DNA from: Thermoproteus tenax Kra 1
Lineage (GTDB): Archaea > Thermoproteota > Thermoprotei > Thermoproteales > Thermoproteaceae
NCBI RefSeq assembly: GCF_000253055.1
Contig: NC_016070.1
Span: forward strand, 390,001-422,000
DNA: 32,000 nt
Direction of reading: 5' to 3'
Shown: positions 8,044 to 15,043 of the stretch, in pieces
Position numbering within the stretch: the first letter of the stretch is position 1
Layout: each line of letters begins with the position of its first letter
The notes under the pieces: model-generated
Seen by the model: only the letters and a program-made list of their open reading frames with translations
Told to the model about the DNA's origin: nothing
Database searches by the model: none
Translations under genes and position numbers: made by a program

Positions 8044-10416
8044 TTAGGCCCTACGCAGACTCAACGCGTTCAACGTAACCGAGATGCTGCTCAGAGCCAT
8101 CGCGAGGCCTGCCAGCTCCGGTCTCAAAACCACGGGGTATAGGGCGCCCGCAGCCACTGGAATAAGGACTATGTTATATATAAAGGCCCAAATAATATTA
8201 AATTTTATATTTTTAACAATTTTTTGAGACAATTTGAATACTTCTATTATTTTATCTACGCCTCCCCTCAGAAGTATTATATCCCCTGACTCCTTCGCTA
8301 CGTCAGTTCCTGTGCCGACCGCTATTCCCACGTCGGCTACTGCTAGGGCCACTGCGTCGTTTACGCCGTCTCCCACGAAGGCAACTGCCCCTCTCTGCCT
8401 CAGCCGCTCGACCACCTTGGCCTTCCCCTCAGGGTCGAGATCGGCGTAGACTTCGTCTATGCCCAAGGCGCGCGCGACCGCCCGCGCTGGCCTCTCGCGA
8501 TCTCCGGTGATTATCACCGGCTCTATGCCGCGGCTCTTCAGCCACCTCACGGCGTCGGGCGCCTCTTGGCGTATGTAGTCGCCCACGGCGATAGCGCCTC
8601 TCACCTCGTTCTCCACTACTACATAGACTGTAGTGTATCCCCTCTCGCCCATCTCCTCCGACCACCTCTTGATGCTCTCGGGGAGGGCTGCCGCCATGCC
8701 GGCGACTATCCTCTCGTTTCCCACGGCGACAGCCTTGCCGCGCACTCTGCCGTAGACGCCGGCTCCAGGTATAGTGTCGAAGAGCTCTGGCTCAGACAGC
8801 TCGAGCCTCCTCTCTCTGGCGTACTCCACTATGGCTGCTCCTATGGGATGCTCCGATTTGTTCTCCACGGACGCTGCCAGGGCAAGCGCCTCATCGTCGC
8901 CGAGGGCAGCTACCACCTTGGGCCTCCCCACAGTGAGGGTCCCCGTCTTGTCGAAGCCGACTATGCGGGCCTCCAAGAGCCTCTGCAACGCCTCGGGCCT
9001 CCTTATGAGCACGCCCTTCTCCGCCGCCCTCCCCACTCCGACTACCACAGACAACGGAGTGGCCAGCCCCAAGGCGCATGGACACGCTACGACTAACACA
9101 GATGCTGCAAACATCAACGCCTTGCTGACGTCGGCAGTCGCCAGATACCATCCGGCGAAGGTCAGAGCTGCGGCCGCAACGACGACCCAGGCGAAGGCGC
9201 CGGCAACCCTGTCCACAAAATATTGCACGGGCAACTTGGCGCCCTGGGCAGTCCTCACGAGCTTCACTATCTGCGATAGGAGCGTGTGTCTCCCGCTTCT
9301 GGTGGTCCTCACGGCTAGGTAGCCCTTGGTCAGAAGAGAGCCCGCCAAGACTACGTCGCCCTTCCTCTTCTCGGCCGGCATAGGCTCGCCCGTGAAGGCC
9401 GACTCGTCCACGAGGCCTGCGCCGTCCTCGACTATGCCGTCTACGGGCACTTTCTCGCCCTGTTTGACCACTACGATCTGGCCCGGCCTCACTTGGGCGG
9501 CCGGCACCTCTCCGCCGTCAATGAGCCTCGCCCTCTCGGGCTGGAGCTGCGCCAGCCTCCTCACAGCCTCGCCAGTCTTGATCCTCATATTGGCCTCTAT
9601 ATACCTCCCCAACAGCACCAAGGTTATCACGGTAGTGGATGCCTCGAAGTAGACCGGGCCGCCGCCCATCAACGAATAGAGGCTGTAGAGATAAGTTGAG
9701 AGCGTGCCTAGGGCGACCAGAGTGTCCATGTTAGCAGTTCTGTTCTTGAGGGCTCTGTAGGCCCCCTTTATGAACCTAAGACCGGAATAGAACTGGACGG
9801 GCGTAGCTAGCGCCAGCCCGAGCCAGGCAGACGCAGTTGGGAGCCTCAGGCCGGCGGCGGAGAGCGCCATCATGGCCAAGAGGGCCGCGGCGGGGCCCGC
9901 TGCGACGAGCAGCCGCCTCCTCAGATCGGCTCTGTCAAGCTCAACTACCCTTCTGTCTACATCGAAGTCTACCTCGCCCGTCTTAACCTCCAGAACCTCG
10001 TAGCCTGCCTCGTCGAGCCTCTTGGCCAGATCCTCTGGCGCTATCTCCAAGGGGTTGAACTCTACGGCGACAGTCCTGGAGGTCGGATTTACCCTTACGT
10101 TGAAGATGCCCCACGTCGATAGCAGCTCCTCAATATGCCGCGCCTCCTCGGGCTCCATGGCCTTCAAGACCAAGTGTGCCTCCTCTCTGTATACATCGTA
10201 GCCGGCCCTCCTCACAGCCTTCAGCAGATCGCCGTAGTTGAGCTTGGAGGGATCAGCCACAATCTTGGCCTCGTCGCCCGCTAGTGAGGCCTCGGCGTGT
10301 AGGACTCCCGGCACGGACAAAAGCGCCTTCTGTACAGTAAGAGTACACGTGGCGCAGTGCATGCCGATTATCTTCAGAGTGGACTCTCTGCCGCGCTCAA
10401 ACTTGAGTCTGATCAC
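8044..10416 (-). CDS. copA: Copper-translocating P1B-type ATPase
   Basis: 790 aa. N-terminal HMA domain GMHCATC. Also CPC (VVACPCALGLATP), DKTGTLT, TGD and GDGVNDA. GTG start. Confidence 0.93.
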   Translation of the reverse strand: MIRLKFERGRESTLKIIGMHCATCTLTVQKALLSVPGVLHAEASLAGDEAKIVADPSKLNYGDLLKAVRRAGYDVYREEAHLVLKAMEPEEARHIEELLSTWGIFNVRVNPTSRTVAVEFNPLEIAPEDLAKRLDEAGYEVLEVKTGEVDFDVDRRVVELDRADLRRRLLVAAGPAAALLAMMALSAAGLRLPTASAWLGLALATPVQFYSGLRFIKGAYRALKNRTANMDTLVALGTLSTYLYSLYSLMGGGPVYFEASTTVITLVLLGRYIEANMRIKTGEAVRRLAQLQPERARLIDGGEVPAAQVRPGQIVVVKQGEKVPVDGIVEDGAGLVDESAFTGEPMPAEKRKGDVVLAGSLLTKGYLAVRTTRSGRHTLLSQIVKLVRTAQGAKLPVQYFVDRVAGAFAWVVVAAAALTFAGWYLATADVSKALMFAASVLVVACPCALGLATPLSVVVGVGRAAEKGVLIRRPEALQRLLEARIVGFDKTGTLTVGRPKVVAALGDDEALALAASVENKSEHPIGAAIVEYARERRLELSEPELFDTIPGAGVYGRVRGKAVAVGNERIVAGMAAALPESIKRWSEEMGERGYTTVYVVVENEVRGAIAVGDYIRQEAPDAVRWLKSRGIEPVIITGDRERPARAVARALGIDEVYADLDPEGKAKVVERLRQRGAVAFVGDGVNDAVALAVADVGIAVGTGTDVAKESGDIILLRGGVDKIIEVFKLSQKIVKNIKFNIIWAFIYNIVLIPVAAGALYPVVLRPELAGLAMALSSISVTLNALSLRRA

Positions 10417-10469
10417 GCCCCTCCAGACTTTCCACGTAAAAAGATTAAAAGGAGAGCGCTGGCTGTGCC
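10417..10469. promoter_or_regulatory. Shared bidirectional promoter of copA and the YHS gene
   Basis: The single A/T element TAAAAAGATTAAAA (10437..10450) is centred 26 nt from ATG 10470 and 28 nt from the copA GTG at 10416. Confidence 0.5.
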
Positions 10470-10649
10470 ATGCGCGCTGAGGAGATAGACCCTGTGTGCG
10501 GCATGAGGGTGGACCCCAAGACCTCTAAATACAAGGTTTTGTACAAGGGGAAGATCTACTACTTCTGCTCCGAGGCTTGCAAGTCCGAGTTCGAGAAAAA
10601 CGCCGAGTTCTACCTGGCCCACGGGCCGCAGGGCATGCCCCATAGATAG
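10470..10649 (+). CDS. YHS/TRASH-domain small metal-binding protein (putative copper chaperone); absent from the ORF track because it is 59 aa
   Basis: My own translation: MRAEEIDPVCGMRVDPKTSKYKVLYKGKIYYFCSEACKSEFEKNAEFYLAHGPQGMPHR. It has the DPVCGM...YYFCS..C pattern typical of YHS/TRASH domains and is divergent from copA. Confidence 0.75.
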   Translation: MRAEEIDPVCGMRVDPKTSKYKVLYKGKIYYFCSEACKSEFEKNAEFYLAHGPQGMPHR

Positions 10650-11156
10650 CTATTGCTCCGAGACTTCGTACCTTCTAATGACCTCCTTTTCCCGCTCCGA
10701 GATCTTGTGAGCCGCGTACTTCTCCTTGACCACGGAGCCGCCTATGTTCCTCGCTCTATAAAACGCCACTTCGTCGGGCGTCTCCCTCACTCCGTATCTC
10801 ACCTCTACGTCGAAGGCCGCGCCCTCCAACTCGTCCAACGCGAAGTACACTGGAGTGTGTAGGACGGCCAAAGCGCCGGCGGCCCTCCTCAAGATATCCA
10901 GCGCCCTCTCGGCTAAGCCCTCCCGGAGGGGTCCCATTATGAGCACGGGGTTCTCCACAGCGTCCAGAGCCTCTCCGTATGCGACGGCGATGGGCCTTGC
11001 CCCTCTGGCCTCGGCCAGAGCTATTATCGCTGATGCCATGGCAATGCAACTGGGCGTCTCGTCGTAGACCACTGTGAACTTGTCCACGTCTTTCAACATA
11101 TATTTGTCGTACCATTGGGCCAACAATGCCCTATACTCGAGTTCAGCTCCTTCCAT
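10650..11156 (-). CDS. Hypothetical protein
   Basis: 168-aa ORF with coding-like composition and no motif recognised. Its stop abuts the YHS gene stop (TAGCTA). Confidence 0.55.
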   Translation of the reverse strand: MEGAELEYRALLAQWYDKYMLKDVDKFTVVYDETPSCIAMASAIIALAEARGARPIAVAYGEALDAVENPVLIMGPLREGLAERALDILRRAAGALAVLHTPVYFALDELEGAAFDVEVRYGVRETPDEVAFYRARNIGGSVVKEKYAAHKISEREKEVIRRYEVSEQ

Positions 11157-11432
11157 AAATCATCCAAAATTTGACCTTAAAAATTAAAAATAGTGAATTT
11201 TAGAAAACCTCAAGCCCTATTAAGGCTTTTTCTCGGCCTTTTTCTTCTCCTTCTCAACCTTCTCTGGAGGCGCACACATGAGGATGGAATAAAAGCTACC
11301 ATATATAAACATTTTGCTATATGTTTTTATTGCAGTCTAAATTTTTGTATAAAATTACTTATTTTTCTTACACTATTATTCTTATTCTTTAATTTAATCT
11401 CAATATTATAATAATATTTTTTATTTAATTAA

Positions 11433-12113
11433 TTAATTTTCATCGTATATATTTTTTATATATTTTCCATGCCACCAGTGGTATATCACTTGGCCGTAGG
11501 GGCTGACGCTTATCATTTGCATATCGCCGTCCGGCGTCTTGAAGTGGAACGTATAATATCCTCTGAAGGGATAGGCTTCGGTTATAACCGACCCTGGAAA
11601 GTTGTGCGACAGCCATTCCTCTGCTATCCTCTCTGCGACCGCCTCGTTGCCGGGGTCTCTAAAGCGCCACATCATAGATTGAGGCTCGGGATGGACTACG
11701 CCATTAGGGTAGACCAGTAGCTCTTCGATTCCTATATTCTGTCTTTTATCCCAGATTACTACATAATAGTTATTTGAATATTTTTCTATTAATTTGATTT
11801 CTGCAGAAGGATAATATTTTTGTATATAAACTAAATAATGATTCACATAGTTTAAAATATTGTCATCGTTAACATATGTAGCATTGCCGCTATACAGTCC
11901 AGAGGCCATGGGACAGGCCGTGGGAAATACTGAACGGCCTTGGGCGTTGTTCAAAGGGACCCAGACGGAGGGCGTGGTCCACATCTCTATGAATATCCAT
12001 GCCGATATTCCCCCTATGGCTATTATTAGCGCCAGCGCTGTTGCCAGTAGCTTGTCCATACGTGCTGATTTCACCCGCTTAGATAAAGATTTAGTGAAAA
12101 AAGACGACTTCAC
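11433..12113 (-). CDS. Membrane-anchored protein with two PepSY-like repeats
   Basis: 226 aa. Basic N-terminus followed by a TM anchor (LLATALALIIAIGGISAWIFI). There are two segments with the PepSY-like pattern, AEIKLIEKYSNNYYVVIW...LLVYPNGVV and AERIAEEWL...YYTFHFKTPDGDMQMISVSPYGQVI. The gene is AT-rich. The start could instead be M19. Confidence 0.55.
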   Translation of the reverse strand: MKSSFFTKSLSKRVKSARMDKLLATALALIIAIGGISAWIFIEMWTTPSVWVPLNNAQGRSVFPTACPMASGLYSGNATYVNDDNILNYVNHYLVYIQKYYPSAEIKLIEKYSNNYYVVIWDKRQNIGIEELLVYPNGVVHPEPQSMMWRFRDPGNEAVAERIAEEWLSHNFPGSVITEAYPFRGYYTFHFKTPDGDMQMISVSPYGQVIYHWWHGKYIKNIYDEN

Positions 12114-12171
12114 GGTTTCATCTAGGTGAAACTTATCGTAAACTCTTTATTAATCCTCTTCAATTTCGGCA

Positions 12172-12615
12172 GTGAAGAGGACAGAGATATACGCGCTAGT
12201 CCTCTCCATGGTGCTCTCATTCGCTACTGCGTTTCTAATAGATCTCTATCACGTCGAATATATGAGATATATGATGCCAACGGCTCCCTTCCCTACTCCC
12301 TTATTCTTTATCTCGTGGCTCATCCTAGCCACGCTATTTATGATAGTCGGGCTCTGGCTCACAAGAGACACGACTAAGTCCGAAGAGGTGAATATAGAGG
12401 TGGTCAGACGGTTGCTCCCCGATCTGGAGAGGAAGGTTCTTGACTATATAATTAAAAACGGCGGCGAGGTGAGCCAGTCCGACATAGCTAGGTCGCTGAA
12501 GTTGAACAAGGTTAGAACGTGGAGAGTTGTACAAAGGTTGCAACAGAAGGGATTAATAGAAGTTTATAAAGCCAAAGGAAGAAATATTGTTAGAATAAAA
12601 ATTAAAGAAAATTGA
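12172..12615 (+). CDS. Membrane-associated winged-helix transcription regulator (COG2512-like)
   Basis: 147 aa. Two N-terminal TM helices, then LERKVLDYIIKNGGEVSQSDIARSLKLNKVRTWRVVQRLQQKGLIEV (wHTH). GTG start. Confidence 0.7.
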   Translation: MKRTEIYALVLSMVLSFATAFLIDLYHVEYMRYMMPTAPFPTPLFFISWLILATLFMIVGLWLTRDTTKSEEVNIEVVRRLLPDLERKVLDYIIKNGGEVSQSDIARSLKLNKVRTWRVVQRLQQKGLIEVYKAKGRNIVRIKIKEN

Positions 12616-12621
12616 TATTAT

Positions 12622-13200
12622 TTATTGACGTTTTGCAATAATATGTAATATACCGGGCGCCGTTATAACCTCTTGGACCTTGTACTCAAATTCCTCCAGC
12701 AGACACCTCGCGGCGGCCGCGTTGGCCTCGACAGACTCCAGGCTGTATCCTATCCCCACTATATCTATCTGGACTTCGTCTTGTTGTATCTTCACGTCGA
12801 ACTTCTTGGCCGGCACTATCTTGGCCAGATAGGGGACGAAGCTTTTGACGGCCTCTAGATCGCGGAACACCGCCTTTATGTAGCCCGCCAACATCTTGCC
12901 TGCATCGCACCACACCTTGAGGATAGTCTCTTTGTCAACCCTATAGACGTCGCTTATCAGTTTGTCCAGAACTCTTCCAGGTATCGGCACTATCTCGAGC
13001 TCCATCATTATTCTGTAGAAATACGCGAGCTCCCTCACTTGGGCGGGGCTGTAGCCGGATTTGATGAGCTCCAGGCCCAGCCTTAACAGCTCGTTGGCTA
13101 ACGCGTACTGAGTCATGCCGGACGAGTCAGCCACATTGGCCAACTCCTCTGCGACGTCCCTAGCTACTGCCAGACTGACTCTGTCTTTTCTAGTGCTCAT
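12622..13200 (-). CDS. Hypothetical protein with an N-terminal ribbon-helix-helix-like segment
   Basis: 192 aa. The N-terminus DRVSLAVARDVAEELANVADSSGMTQYALANELLRLGL fits a beta-alpha-alpha RHH pattern. An A/T box lies about 22 nt upstream. Confidence 0.55.
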   Translation of the reverse strand: MSTRKDRVSLAVARDVAEELANVADSSGMTQYALANELLRLGLELIKSGYSPAQVRELAYFYRIMMELEIVPIPGRVLDKLISDVYRVDKETILKVWCDAGKMLAGYIKAVFRDLEAVKSFVPYLAKIVPAKKFDVKIQQDEVQIDIVGIGYSLESVEANAAAARCLLEEFEYKVQEVITAPGILHIIAKRQ

Positions 13201-13275
13201 ACATCAAATTATCTACAGGTGTATATATTCATAACAGCCGTAATGGGCCCTATATGTAACGATAGACAGGCCCGC

Positions 13276-13704
13276 CTAGAACGCAATTAGTCTTCCATCG
13301 GCGACCTCCTCCAGGAATGTGTACATAGATGTCACGCGCTCCACGAGGCCCGCCGTCTTGAACTCCTCCTCCCCCACGCCGAAGATCCTCGCGGCGGTCT
13401 CACAGGCAATGACCCTGGCCCCCAACGCCTTGGCGGACTCAAAGAGCTCTCTCCAAGTCACTCGTAGCTCCCTCATCTTAGCGGCCTCGGGCGAATCCGG
13501 CTCGGTTGCCCTTCCAGCGAATGCTAACACGGCTCTGCCTGTCACAAACACCACGACCTCGTTGCCCCTAGCGACCTCAGTGGCCACATAGGTGCCTGCG
13601 ACGTAGAGATCGATTGGATCGTCCGAAGACAAGATAACTCCCACCTTCATGCTACGAGCTTCCGGCGGCTCCTCTAGCTTGCGACGGGCGTCTTCCAGGC
13701 CCAT
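13276..13704 (-). CDS. DsrE-like protein (COG2044 'peroxiredoxin-like' DsrE family)
   Basis: 142 aa. MKVGVILSSDDP...VVVFVTGRAV...VIACETAARIFG fits the DsrE-like fold with a conserved Cys-Glu. The start may be M19 (13650). Confidence 0.6.
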   Translation of the reverse strand: MGLEDARRKLEEPPEARSMKVGVILSSDDPIDLYVAGTYVATEVARGNEVVVFVTGRAVLAFAGRATEPDSPEAAKMRELRVTWRELFESAKALGARVIACETAARIFGVGEEEFKTAGLVERVTSMYTFLEEVADGRLIAF

Positions 13705-13749
13705 CAGCCCCTAATGGGACATCGCTATTAGTATCTTGGGTATAGTGCA

Positions 13750-13779
13750 AATTTTGAACATATTATTTTGTTCAAAATT
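13750..13779. repeat. Perfect 11-bp inverted repeat AATTTTGAACA-n8-TGTTCAAAATT
   Basis: Read directly in the AT-rich spacer between the mini-protein gene stop (13817) and the DsrE-like gene start (13704). Confidence 0.85.
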
Positions 13780-13816
13780 ATTTTAATTTAATTATAAATA
13801 AAAAAATTTTATAATT

Positions 13817-14020
13817 CTAATTTTTCATTAATTGTTTATAAATCCATATAAATATTAATATAAGGATTCCTACAAATAAGGCCATTATCAGTATCCCGAA
13901 TATTGCCCCGAAGAAACCCCAGGGGCCCCACCACCAGCCTCCTCCCCACCAACCGCACATCGGACATTGCGCCGCGGCTAAGACTGCAAGCGCCAACAGA
14001 GCCATCAACGCACGTCTCAT
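13817..14020 (-). CDS. Secreted/membrane mini-protein with a CPMC plus Trp/Gly-rich segment
   Basis: 67 aa from ATG 14020 (the ORF track extends to TTG 14038). Signal-like MRRALMALLALAVLAAAQ, then CPMCGWWGGGWWWGPWGFFG, then one TM (AIFGILIMALFVGILILIFIWIY) and KQLMKN. The A/T box CTTTTATAG lies about 18 nt upstream of the ATG. Confidence 0.55.
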   Translation of the reverse strand: MRRALMALLALAVLAAAQCPMCGWWGGGWWWGPWGFFGAIFGILIMALFVGILILIFIWIYKQLMKN

Positions 14021-14212
14021 GGCTACGCTACTCTTCAACTATAAAAGCCTTTGCTGAAACCGCCGCCAAGCGTCGTCTCGTTCCTCTGAAACTTGCAACC
14101 GGACTAATGTGCTCCTTGGAGAATAGACCGCCTCCCCACACTAAAGGATGGGGTTTGCCGTCTCCGACGTCATCACCGTTGTTCTGTATAATATCGAATT
14201 AGTTTCTATTTC

Positions 14213-15043
14213 GTGCAGAAACTATTAACATTGTTAAAGCTTAAAAGGGTAGAACGAACTACCCCCATGGTTGATAACTGGATACCTTTGATGTATGGTC
14301 TCATGGCTGGATTAACAGTGTTAATAGGAGCGTTCTCAGCGTCTGCAGCCAGATCTCGACTTAACAACGTCAGGCTTGGAGTACTACAAGGCGTGGCTGG
14401 AGGCATACTGGCGTATTTGGCGCTAGAGACTGGGCACGATGCCGAGGAGTACGTGGAGGGCTTGGCGAGACCTCAGACGCTTCACTTGTTTCTCCTCGCC
14501 GCCGCAGTGACCACAGCGGCATTTTTAACTACCTTCATTGTGCTTGCCGCCGTCGAGCAATTGAACAGACGGAGGGGGAAGTTTGGACTTTTTACAGGCC
14601 TTGTGGTCGCTATAGCGCTTGGCGTCCACAACATCGGCGAGGGGTTCGCGATTGCCTCGAGCCTTCTGGCAGGAGCTGTCACATCGGCGCTCACATACAC
14701 CATTGGATTCGCAATCCACAACGCAACAGAGGGCTTTGCAGTGGCCGGCCCGTTGTTGACAGGGCGCACCTCCGTCGGCCCAGCCCGTCTGTCAGCCTTG
14801 GCCGCGCTGGCCGGGCTCCCCACGCTAGCCGGCGTCGCCGTCTATTACACTGGCTTCTCCAACGGCCTCTTCTTGGCATTATTGAACGCAATCGCCAATG
14901 CGTCAATAGTCTACGCCATGGTCCATGTGAATATAGATGCACTGTCAAAACTGGGCGGGGTGGCCAGCATCAAGTTCTGGCTCTCTTTGACTGCGGGGAT
15001 CGTCGTCGCCATCGCCACAGAAAGCGTCCTGCTCCTTGCCTAA
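14213..15043 (+). CDS. ZIP-family divalent metal transporter (ZupT-like)
   Basis: 276 aa, polytopic. Two HNxxEG motifs (HNIGEGFAIA, HNATEGFAVA). The GTG start is about 23-26 nt downstream of TGTATAATATC. Confidence 0.85.
   Translation: MQKLLTLLKLKRVERTTPMVDNWIPLMYGLMAGLTVLIGAFSASAARSRLNNVRLGVLQGVAGGILAYLALETGHDAEEYVEGLARPQTLHLFLLAAAVTTAAFLTTFIVLAAVEQLNRRRGKFGLFTGLVVAIALGVHNIGEGFAIASSLLAGAVTSALTYTIGFAIHNATEGFAVAGPLLTGRTSVGPARLSALAALAGLPTLAGVAVYYTGFSNGLFLALLNAIANASIVYAMVHVNIDALSKLGGVASIKFWLSLTAGIVVAIATESVLLLA

Follow-up and report, generated by a model that had tools for sequence, protein, structure and literature searches.

What is encoded by a 67-amino-acid (aa) open reading frame (ORF) that faces away from a ZIP metal transporter gene in Thermoproteus tenax Kra 1, and does the product have anything to do with that transporter? 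The ORF is composed largely of a hydrophobic N-terminus, a Cys-Pro-Met-Cys motif, a stretch of Gly and Trp and a single transmembrane (TM) helix, and was analysed within a window of 32,000 nucleotides (nt) of contig NC_016070.1 (positions 390,001 to 422,000), to which all coordinates given without a locus number refer. It was found to belong to a genuine, unnamed small-protein family, restricted so far to Thermoproteaceae, whose members are here called mini-proteins. The mini-protein is constrained, its gene is syntenic with the genes of a membrane-anchored winged-helix-turn-helix (wHTH) regulator and of a protein family here called P219, and it lies in copper/mercury-resistance islands where a promoter motif is shared with its neighbours. 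A role in soft-metal handling outside the membrane is favoured below, and the adjacency to the ZIP gene is peculiar to the T. tenax genome.

A constrained small-protein family

The ORF (Table 1) translates to MRRALMALLALAVLAAAQCPMCGWWGGGWWWGPWGFFGAIFGILIMALFVGILILIFIWIYKQLMKN. The ORF itself, its Trp/Gly segment and its divergence from a ZIP gene are present as described in the initial annotation (ORF listing, Pfam and NCBIfam), which had counted 15 residues with 6 Trp and 6 Gly between the outermost Trp; the segment from first to last Trp is in fact WWGGGWWWGPW, 11 residues with 6 Trp and 4 Gly, while residues 19-38, CPMCGWWGGGWWWGPWGFFG, hold 6 Trp and 7 Gly in 20 residues. An exhaustive phmmer search against 1.84 billion representatives retrieved six relatives (E 2.9e-15 to 6.8e-4), and a profile made from these recovered eleven proteins, nine of them at E 1e-18 to 6e-29. 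Among the profile matches were WP_148678597.1, a 'hypothetical protein' of T. uzoniensis, and two proteins, P0057 (E 0.016) and P0058 (E 2.7), that are fragments of one frameshifted copy. When the family hidden Markov model (HMM) was run on the fetched loci with --max, which switches off the speed and bias filters of HMMER, an intact copy was found in every locus with the right neighbours, together with the frameshifted copy in locus L035; hits were obtained in 12 loci. The frameshifted copy, at L035 4144-4747, gave rise to P0057 and P0058. Since the regulator and P219 genes are split there as well, the module is either decaying or poorly assembled.

The family thus comprises about 12 distinct sequences of 67-81 aa with a single motif order and length differences that all preserve the frame. 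The N-terminal plan M-(K/R)-hydrophobic-AxA|Q-C-P-(M)-C is followed by G(G)WWGG(G/W)W...WGF(F/L)(G/W) and a hydrophobic helix of about 23 residues. Behind the TM helix the chain ends in W-L-Y-R-Q-(L/I), usually continued as ..Q-P-H-H, with an overall pattern WLYRQ..(Q/K)(P/T/A/S)H(H/N) and a His-His or His-Asn tail in most homologues. No variation is seen at Cys19, at Pro20, at the Gln before Cys19 or at five of the seven Trp (four of which belong to the Gly/Trp stretch), and Met21 and Cys22 are almost invariant. The proportion of synonymous differences exceeded that of nonsynonymous differences in all 45 of 45 pairs, and the ratio of nonsynonymous to synonymous rates (dN/dS) was 0.11-0.43 where dS was unsaturated. 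Whether homologues with a preserved frame exist had been left to a later search in the initial annotation; the approximately 12 homologues settle this in favour of a real protein-coding gene.

With a local GC of 5-28%, the ORF's 3′ third falls within a 157-base-pair (bp) island of 16% GC (13726-13882), the window as a whole having 56%. The TM segment of T. tenax is kept as amino acids with Leu-to-Ile and Arg-to-Lys exchanges, and other lineages encode the same segment in GC-rich DNA. These replacements match the AT pressure expected on a constrained protein, which argues for a real gene. In a second, T. tenax-like strain, about 99% identical over a 1.9-kb Logan contig, the mini gene is without substitution and the same 67-aa product was called.

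Two other searches came out empty. With the 67-aa sequence as query, no match at E<=10 came from a word-indexed protein search, and a pattern plus tblastn scan of 185,579 genomes yielded 326 pattern matches of which 0 were confirmed by tblastn, the T. tenax genome itself not appearing. Both are regarded as false negatives, probably caused by the Trp/Gly/hydrophobic composition, and serve as a methodological warning, as the family was reached solely by exhaustive phmmer. No family matching the mini-protein was found in Pfam, NCBIfam, a PDB sequence profile search or PHROGs, in agreement with the earlier statement that no family with this motif was known, and literature searches found no description of the family or its module. 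Neither the 67-aa nor a 73-aa form is among the deposited T. tenax proteins, so the gene appears to be unannotated there.

From its sequence the mini-protein is probably a small type-I membrane protein whose Sec signal peptide is predicted to be cleaved behind AxA, so that the mature chain would start with Gln. An N-out/C-in topology is suggested by the basic residues that follow the TM helix. The AlphaFold2 (AF2) model consists of a helix at residues 2-17, disorder at 18-32 and a helix at 33-66. An alternative TTG start at 14038 is unlikely since merely 2 nt separate it from the TTTTATA box.

A conserved gene neighbourhood

Gene context was compared in eleven lineages for which flanking DNA was recovered; the contigs appear Pyrobaculum- or Thermoproteus-like, as judged by their PaREP1 genes. 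The mini gene is convergent with the gene of a membrane-anchored winged-helix regulator in 11 of 11 lineages. These regulators, of 147-192 aa, have TM helices at the N-terminus and a MarR/TrmB-like winged helix at the C-terminus, and those of lineages other than T. tenax carry MCxxCxFPSPM in the membrane domain. A P219 gene, encoding 211-226 aa, is adjacent in nine lineages. Two arrangements recur, DUF411<- ->mini <-wHTH ->P219 and ->wHTH <-mini ->P219 ->YHS ->CopA. Every lineage has a YHS/TRASH or CopA gene in its locus, no more than about 6.5 kb away. Divergent from the mini gene in five lineages are genes for Thioredoxin_2 and for a DUF411 protein carrying the CopG-type CxCC motif, and in a sixth (L027) DUF411 stands beside a broken Thioredoxin_2. 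A CueO-like multicopper oxidase gene follows the module in L017, such oxidases being nearby only in L017, L018 and L019. In L026 (2408-3820) a full-length MerA gene (TIGR02053, 566 bits against a cut-off of 454) comes directly after P219 and two genes from the mini gene, showing that the module is not tied to copper alone. The mini-protein, the membrane-anchored wHTH regulator and P219 are three genes travelling together in the copper/mercury-resistance islands of Thermoproteaceae, and the T. tenax window has the same set of CopA, YHS, P168, P219 and wHTH regulator genes at 8044-12615.

Except in T. tenax, the mini and regulator genes share roughly 70-100 nt at their 3′ ends in every lineage (Table 1), and antisense coupling of the two genes is possible. 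The overlapping tail of the regulator (e.g. SIEPENQQHHKGQKQHG) is poorly conserved and is absent in T. tenax.

P219 proteins consist of an N-terminal TM segment, a Met/Gly/Trp-rich tract ending in GGCPMAGWW and a conserved C-terminal domain with the motifs HPEPQSMMW, FPGYYTFHF and GDMQMLSVNGY, which matches PepSY weakly (E 0.016); the family has no Pfam or NCBIfam assignment. The motif CPMxGWW is thus common to the mini-protein and its P219 neighbours. Homology of the two families is not demonstrable beyond this shared motif, the hhalign comparison giving an 11-column CPM-GWW match at 16% probability. More distant P219 relatives (27-40% identity) occur in loci without a mini gene (L036-L056).

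Promoter and candidate operator

The A/T box that had been placed about 18 nt upstream of the ATG is the TTTTATA box of Table 1, and its 19-nt distance from the ATG suggests a leaderless or near-leaderless mRNA. An A/T box lies 19-22 nt before the mini ATG in all 11 lineages examined. Two copies of CTGAAAC, correctly reported earlier at 14054 and 14086 and 32 nt apart, read GTTTCAG on the coding strand and form a proximal and a distal half-site. The proximal one corresponds to GTTTC(A/T/G)(C/G) at -40 to -42 of the mini gene, 7 nt upstream of the TATA box, in L017, L020, L028, L029, L030 and L057, and the same GTTTCAC element is found at about -41 of P219 genes and about -35 of DUF411 genes. 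The distal one corresponds to the left arm of a palindrome, GTTTCA-N4-GTGAAAC, which in L020, L030 and L057 stands at about -73 to -57; proximal and distal sites are 32 nt apart in L057, as in T. tenax, and 31-32 nt apart in L020 and L030. Looser versions of the palindrome occur in L023, L027 and L032, and a further GTGAAAC is often present at -84 to -119.

The element is concentrated in this system. Of four GTTTCAS copies in the whole 32-kb window, three belong to the two promoter regions of the cluster. In 69 kb from eight loci outside the window, 18 of 21 exact GTTTCAC copies were in the 2.1 kb that these intergenic regions make up (binomial 7e-25). L057 was fetched later and was not among the loci from which the motif had been derived; its three copies all lie upstream of the mini gene, at -92, -63 and -41. 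The fixed upstream architecture and the shared GTTTCAC element argue that the mini-gene end of the spacer (14048-14092) is a conserved operator, and the element is presumably bound by the adjacent wHTH regulator.

Proposed function and alternatives

The mini-protein is proposed to be an outward-facing accessory or co-sensor that binds soft metals (Cu(I)/Hg(II)), a reading to which we assign a probability of roughly 60%. After cleavage of the signal peptide, the CP(M)C motif and the Gly/Trp-rich stretch (approximately 16-20 residues) would be exposed at the outer membrane surface, tethered by the single C-terminal TM helix with a short basic tail in the cytoplasm. The ligands would be the Cys thiolates and Met, aided by the Trp side chains, and the bound ion would be Cu(I) or, possibly, Hg(II) or Ag(I). 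A site of Cys, Met and Trp is suggested by CPMxGWW at the end of the Met-rich tract of P219, by MCxxCxFPSPM in the regulators and by the His-His tail. Metal exported by CopA might be buffered or handed on by the tethered protein, or the protein might be the metal-capturing partner of the membrane-bound regulator; both roles fit the data, which do not separate them. As for the metal or redox chemistry at the outer face suggested in the initial annotation, metal fits the neighbourhood of CopA, YHS/TRASH, DUF411/CopG, multicopper oxidase and MerA genes, the metal of this context being Cu(I)/Hg(II) and not Zn.

Several observations weigh against this proposal. Metal binding by the mini-protein is proposed from motif and neighbourhood only. 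Since the second Cys is replaced by Tyr in database sequence P0048, and CPMC by CPC in two lineages, a metal site would have no fixed geometry. The T. tenax mini-protein is without the His-His tail and the T. tenax regulator without the Cys pair. In AF2 the Gly/Trp stretch comes out disordered, with a confidence score (pLDDT) below 50, so a defined metal site receives no structural support. The effectors vary (CopA, MerA, multicopper oxidase, CopG), and neither the metal nor the partner can therefore be pinned down. Lastly, the match to the P219 motif spans just 11 columns (hhalign probability 16%).

A wider reading, put forward only tentatively and rather doubtful as a whole, is that mini-protein, wHTH regulator and P219 make up an archaeal membrane-bound soft-metal sensing system that had not been described before. 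In this scheme Cu(I)/Hg(II) would be captured at the cell surface by the micro-protein, and either the ion or a signal would be handed on to the intramembrane MCxxC...PSPM site of the regulator, which would act on GTTTCAC operators of a small regulon. In a variant of the same reading, oligomers of the mini-protein would form a conduit resembling MerF or Ctr1, with CPMC on the outer and His-His on the inner side. We know of no description of metal regulation in Thermoproteaceae. The analysis defines an unnamed small-protein family and, for the handling of copper and mercury by these hyperthermophiles, a three-gene module with GTTTCAC as candidate operator. It predicts metal-induced transcription, binding of the regulator to GTTTCAC and binding of Cu(I)/Hg(II) by a peptide of about 20 residues, the ectodomain peptide with the predicted metal site being QCPMCGWWGGGWWWGPWGFFG.

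The mini-protein may alternatively bind no metal and be a membrane-interface partner that modulates the wHTH regulator or P219, with the Gly/Trp stretch as an interfacial anchor. Small proteins such as ToxS and MgrB modulate membrane sensors, and membrane interfaces are favoured by Trp-rich segments. The stretch is disordered in AF2, and the regulator is the most constant neighbour, in 11 of 11 lineages and usually convergent with overlapping 3′ ends. An invariant Cys19 and a nearly invariant second Cys at the mature N-terminus are however hard to explain without thiol chemistry, and the CPM motif is also found in the Met-rich tract of P219; the interface partner is thus considered unlikely. 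Less likely again is a redox function, in which CPxC would be a dithiol/disulfide engaged in extracytoplasmic thiol-disulfide exchange with the Thioredoxin_2 and DUF411 proteins. CPxC does resemble the active sites of glutaredoxin (CPYC) and DsbA (CPHC), and Thioredoxin_2 is two genes away in five lineages, but the mini-protein has no thioredoxin fold (no Pfam match, two helices only in AF2), CPC of two lineages cannot form the usual CxxC disulfide loop, and no Thioredoxin_2 or DUF411 gene is near the mini gene in T. tenax, L028 and L029. A membrane-active peptide, whether toxin, holin-like protein or Trp-rich antimicrobial, would suit a small, very hydrophobic and Trp-rich product, but is very improbable with a Trp-rich part that lacks cationic residues and is TM-tethered, no PHROG matches, and a gene found constantly in metal-resistance islands with their common promoter element.

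The initial annotation had suggested, besides a membrane-active peptide, an accessory of the ZIP (zinc/iron) transporter and proposed that linkage to ZIP genes be examined. Divergent genes with start codons 246 bp apart could indicate a shared function, but synteny contradicts this. Fifteen ZIP-anchored loci were collected from Thermoproteales, Desulfurococcales and Sulfolobales; 13 had usable upstream DNA, and 0 of these 13 had a Trp-rich or CxxC mini-ORF upstream of ZIP, while 0 homologue loci of the mini gene contained a ZIP gene. The ZIP operator TTAACAnTGTTAA is kept in lineages without the mini gene and GTTTCAC in lineages without ZIP, the promoter elements of the two genes being separate and each conserved in its own set of loci. 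The link to ZIP is rejected on these counts, and a role as a transporter subunit is hardly credible. That the ORF is spurious, a G-rich run read as Trp/Gly and AT-rich intergenic DNA read as Ile/Leu/Phe/Lys, might have been suspected from its AT-rich 3′ third and the two empty searches, but is refuted by twelve homologues under purifying selection, a TM helix conserved as amino acids despite GC-rich coding elsewhere, and a TATA box and operator at fixed distances from the ATG.

Comparison with known systems

The nearest functional analogue of the mini-protein appears to be CutF, encoded in the cutFOG operon of Rhodobacter capsulatus. CutF is small, exported by Sec and free of Pfam domains, and its Cys pair is essential (PMC8456105). 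The CutF gene lies beside multicopper oxidase and CopG/DUF411 genes, and CutF, which depends on the CopA efflux pathway, was proposed to be an extracytoplasmic Cu(I) chaperone that is missed by BLAST because it is short and poorly conserved (PMC8456105). The two proteins are not homologous. CutF is a soluble proteobacterial protein of 118 aa with CxxxC and a Pro-rich C-terminus, whereas the archaeal mini-protein, 67-81 aa long, carries CP(M)C right at the N-terminus of the mature chain, followed by a Gly/Trp stretch and a C-terminal TM anchor, and is linked first to a regulator and not to an oxidase. Of the features that define CutF-like proteins (PMC8456105), the size (under 170 aa), the lack of a Pfam domain and the signal peptide, here judged in all members by inspection of n-region, h-region and AxA pattern, are shared. 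CXXXC is replaced by CPMC (CxxC) or CPC, and a C-terminal end rich in proline, with PP, by a TM helix and WLYRQ tail free of PP. An oxidase neighbour is limited to the three loci named above, and DUF411/CopG is adjacent in six lineages.

MerE, MerF and MerT have 2-3 TM helices and two Cys pairs, one within TM1 and the other cytoplasmic. The mini-protein resembles them in being under 120 aa, in its soft-metal loci and in a Cys pair (CC or CPC) near the outer leaflet, but differs in having one TM helix after removal of the signal and a His-His or His-Asn tail. Identity with these proteins was rejected, as there was no NCBIfam or Pfam match at E<=0.1, the Cys pair lies between signal helix and single TM helix in AF2, and MerA is nearby in one lineage only. 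In CusF the site is made of Met2His plus Trp and belongs to a folded OB-type domain, the Trp capping Cu(I)/Ag(I) by a cation-pi interaction. Cu(I) reaches CusF from CopA (PMC8456105). Extracytoplasmic soft-metal binding by sulfur donors with a Trp cap would be a chemical resemblance only, the mini-protein offering instead Cys, Met and numerous Trp on a short, unstructured peptide.

Archaeal cop clusters of Sulfolobales and Pyrococcus combine CopA with a TRASH/YHS chaperone and a TRASH-type regulator (PMC3595675, PMC7830388). The mini-gene island likewise has a CopA P1B-ATPase gene next to that of a small TRASH/YHS protein, but its regulator is a membrane-anchored winged-helix protein and not a soluble TRASH-type one. 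To our knowledge, no small Trp-rich protein, P219 or GTTTCAC element belongs to the described cop clusters. Three further identities were rejected: a thioredoxin-fold CPxC oxidoreductase (no Pfam thioredoxin match, two helices in AF2, CPC in some members), a lipoprotein with the lipobox [LVI][ASTVI][GAS]C (position -1 before Cys is the invariant Gln), and a cationic Trp-rich antimicrobial of the indolicidin/tritrpticin type (the Gly/Trp stretch has no Arg/Lys and is TM-tethered).

The T. tenax cluster

The features of the window and the corresponding genes of homologue loci are given in Table 1. The P219 protein of the window has an N-terminal TM segment, the motif TACPMASG and a weakly PepSY-like C-terminal domain, and is 44-50% identical to the 211-223 aa neighbours of mini homologues. 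The regulator is 30-36% identical to the 160-163 aa ORFs that adjoin every homologue. Between mini and regulator genes, T. tenax has a DsrE-like gene and a 192-aa hypothetical gene found in none of the other loci, and this two-gene insertion (12622-13704) is bordered by AT-rich islands at 12551-12656 and 13726-13882. The place held by DUF411 elsewhere is filled by ZIP. In L001, from the near-identical second strain, the regulator was called as just 81 aa; identity between L001 (approximately 1705-1880) and the window (approximately 12230-12396) stops at the N-terminal membrane domain, where AT-rich DNA is found instead, which may be either strain variation or an assembly artefact.

Table 1. 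Coordinates of the mini-protein gene, its control elements and its neighbours in the window and in homologue loci
Feature	Position	Strand	Remarks
Mini-protein coding sequence	13817..14020	(-)	ATG at 14020, stop 13817-13819; 67 aa plus stop; from ORF listing
Signal peptide, aa 1-17	13970-14020	(-)	Predicted cleavage AAA|Q
Q18-CPMC, aa 18-22	13955-13969	(-)	
Gly/Trp-rich stretch, aa 23-38	13907-13954	(-)	
TM helix and short basic tail, aa 39-67	13820-13906	(-)	
T7 run, likely archaeal oligo-T terminator	13800..13806	(-)	11-17 nt past stop codon; putative function, from sequence
TATA box TTTTATA of mini gene	14040..14046	(-)	Ends 19 nt before ATG
Proximal candidate operator half-site GTTTCAG	14054..14060	(-)	40 nt before ATG, 7 nt upstream of TATA box
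Distal candidate operator half-site GTTTCAG	14086..14092	(-)	72 nt before ATG, 32 nt from proximal site
CopA-type P1B ATPase	8044..10416	(-)	N-terminal HMA (GMHCATC), CPC, YN and MALSS motifs; NCBIfam ATPase-IB1_Cu 1e-168; Pfam
YHS/TRASH small metal-binding protein	10470..10649	(+)	Pfam YHS 6.7e-18; 74% identity to YHS genes of homologue loci
P168 conserved hypothetical	10650..11156	(-)	41% identity to 167-aa gene of L020
P219-family exported or anchored protein	11433..12113	(-)	Probable start ATG 12059
GTTTCAC element	12126..12132	(-)	Divergent regulator/P219 intergenic region
Membrane-anchored winged-helix (MarR/TrmB-like) regulator	12172..12615	(+)	Pfam MarR_2 1.4e-8
192-aa hypothetical gene	about 12622-13200	(-)	Identical to T. 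tenax CCC81116.1
DsrE-like gene	13276..13704	(-)	Pfam DsrE 1.4e-4; DsrE family name by NCBI
ZIP operator and TATA box	14225..14246	(+)	TTAACATTGTTAA 14225-14237, TTAAAA 14241-14246; outside mini-gene system
ZIP-family transporter	14267..15043	(+)	Incidental neighbour; Pfam Zip and NCBIfam ZupT matches
Mini/regulator 3′ overlaps	L017 6133-6219, L020 6136-6234, L023 5381-5467, L026 875-961, L028 4613-4702, L029 1044-1133, L057 935-1009		
P219 genes	L017 6774-7433, L020 6727-7362, L023 5975-6634, L026 1458-2129		

The spacer and the ZIP promoter

The spacer between the mini and ZIP genes is not AT-rich, as first reported (52-58% GC between 14050 and 14170), and long non-AT spacers are not unusual for mini genes, as a GC-rich upstream region of 379 bp in L057 demonstrates. 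The two TATA boxes are approximately 190 bp apart and not 145 bp. An A/T box at 14184-14196 had been assigned to ZIP, but it is probably not the ZIP promoter given the TTAAAA box and the palindrome before ATG 14267. This ATG, and not GTG 14213, is the start that aligns with 14 ZIP homologues. The short GC stems noted earlier fold no better than shuffled sequence (z = -0.7 and -1.0 on the two strands), giving no signal of RNA structure. No Rfam family, archaeal C/D-box small RNAs included, matched at gathering thresholds across the window, and at E<=10 on 13650-14350 only two chance matches, to a mammalian (PVT1) and a fungal RNA family, were obtained. C/D-box features sought by eye were incomplete, with GTGATGA on the minus strand at 14171-14177 without a CTGA partner. 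The spacer as a relic of the DUF411/thioredoxin pair was rejected, low-stringency tblastn giving noise only. Of the spacer called unexplained in the initial annotation, both ends are now accounted for (14048-14092 as mini operator, 14225-14246 as ZIP operator and TATA box), and the middle of about 105 bp (14093-14199), with no Rfam match, folding signal or DUF411/thioredoxin similarity, is still unexplained.

A perfect 8-bp inverted repeat, TAGTTTCT-N9-AGAAACTA, lies at 14200-14224, 43-67 nt before the ZIP ATG, and includes a GTTTC/GAAAC pair resembling the mini-gene operator. It may be a relic of the divergent promoter seen here in other lineages, or a second input to ZIP. The ZIP palindrome TTAACATTGTTAA recurs upstream of ZIP genes in L002, L006 and L008, and is probably the operator of a zinc-responsive repressor. 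In the form TTAACAnTGTTAA the palindrome stands directly upstream of the ZIP TATA box in four lineages (the window, L002, L006 and L008). Upstream of ZIP in two Sulfolobales-like contigs (L013 4629-4727 and L014 4529-4642) there are unrelated single-TM ORFs of 32-37 aa (…IIVIIVILLIIWWIFFRG) with no Cys motif.

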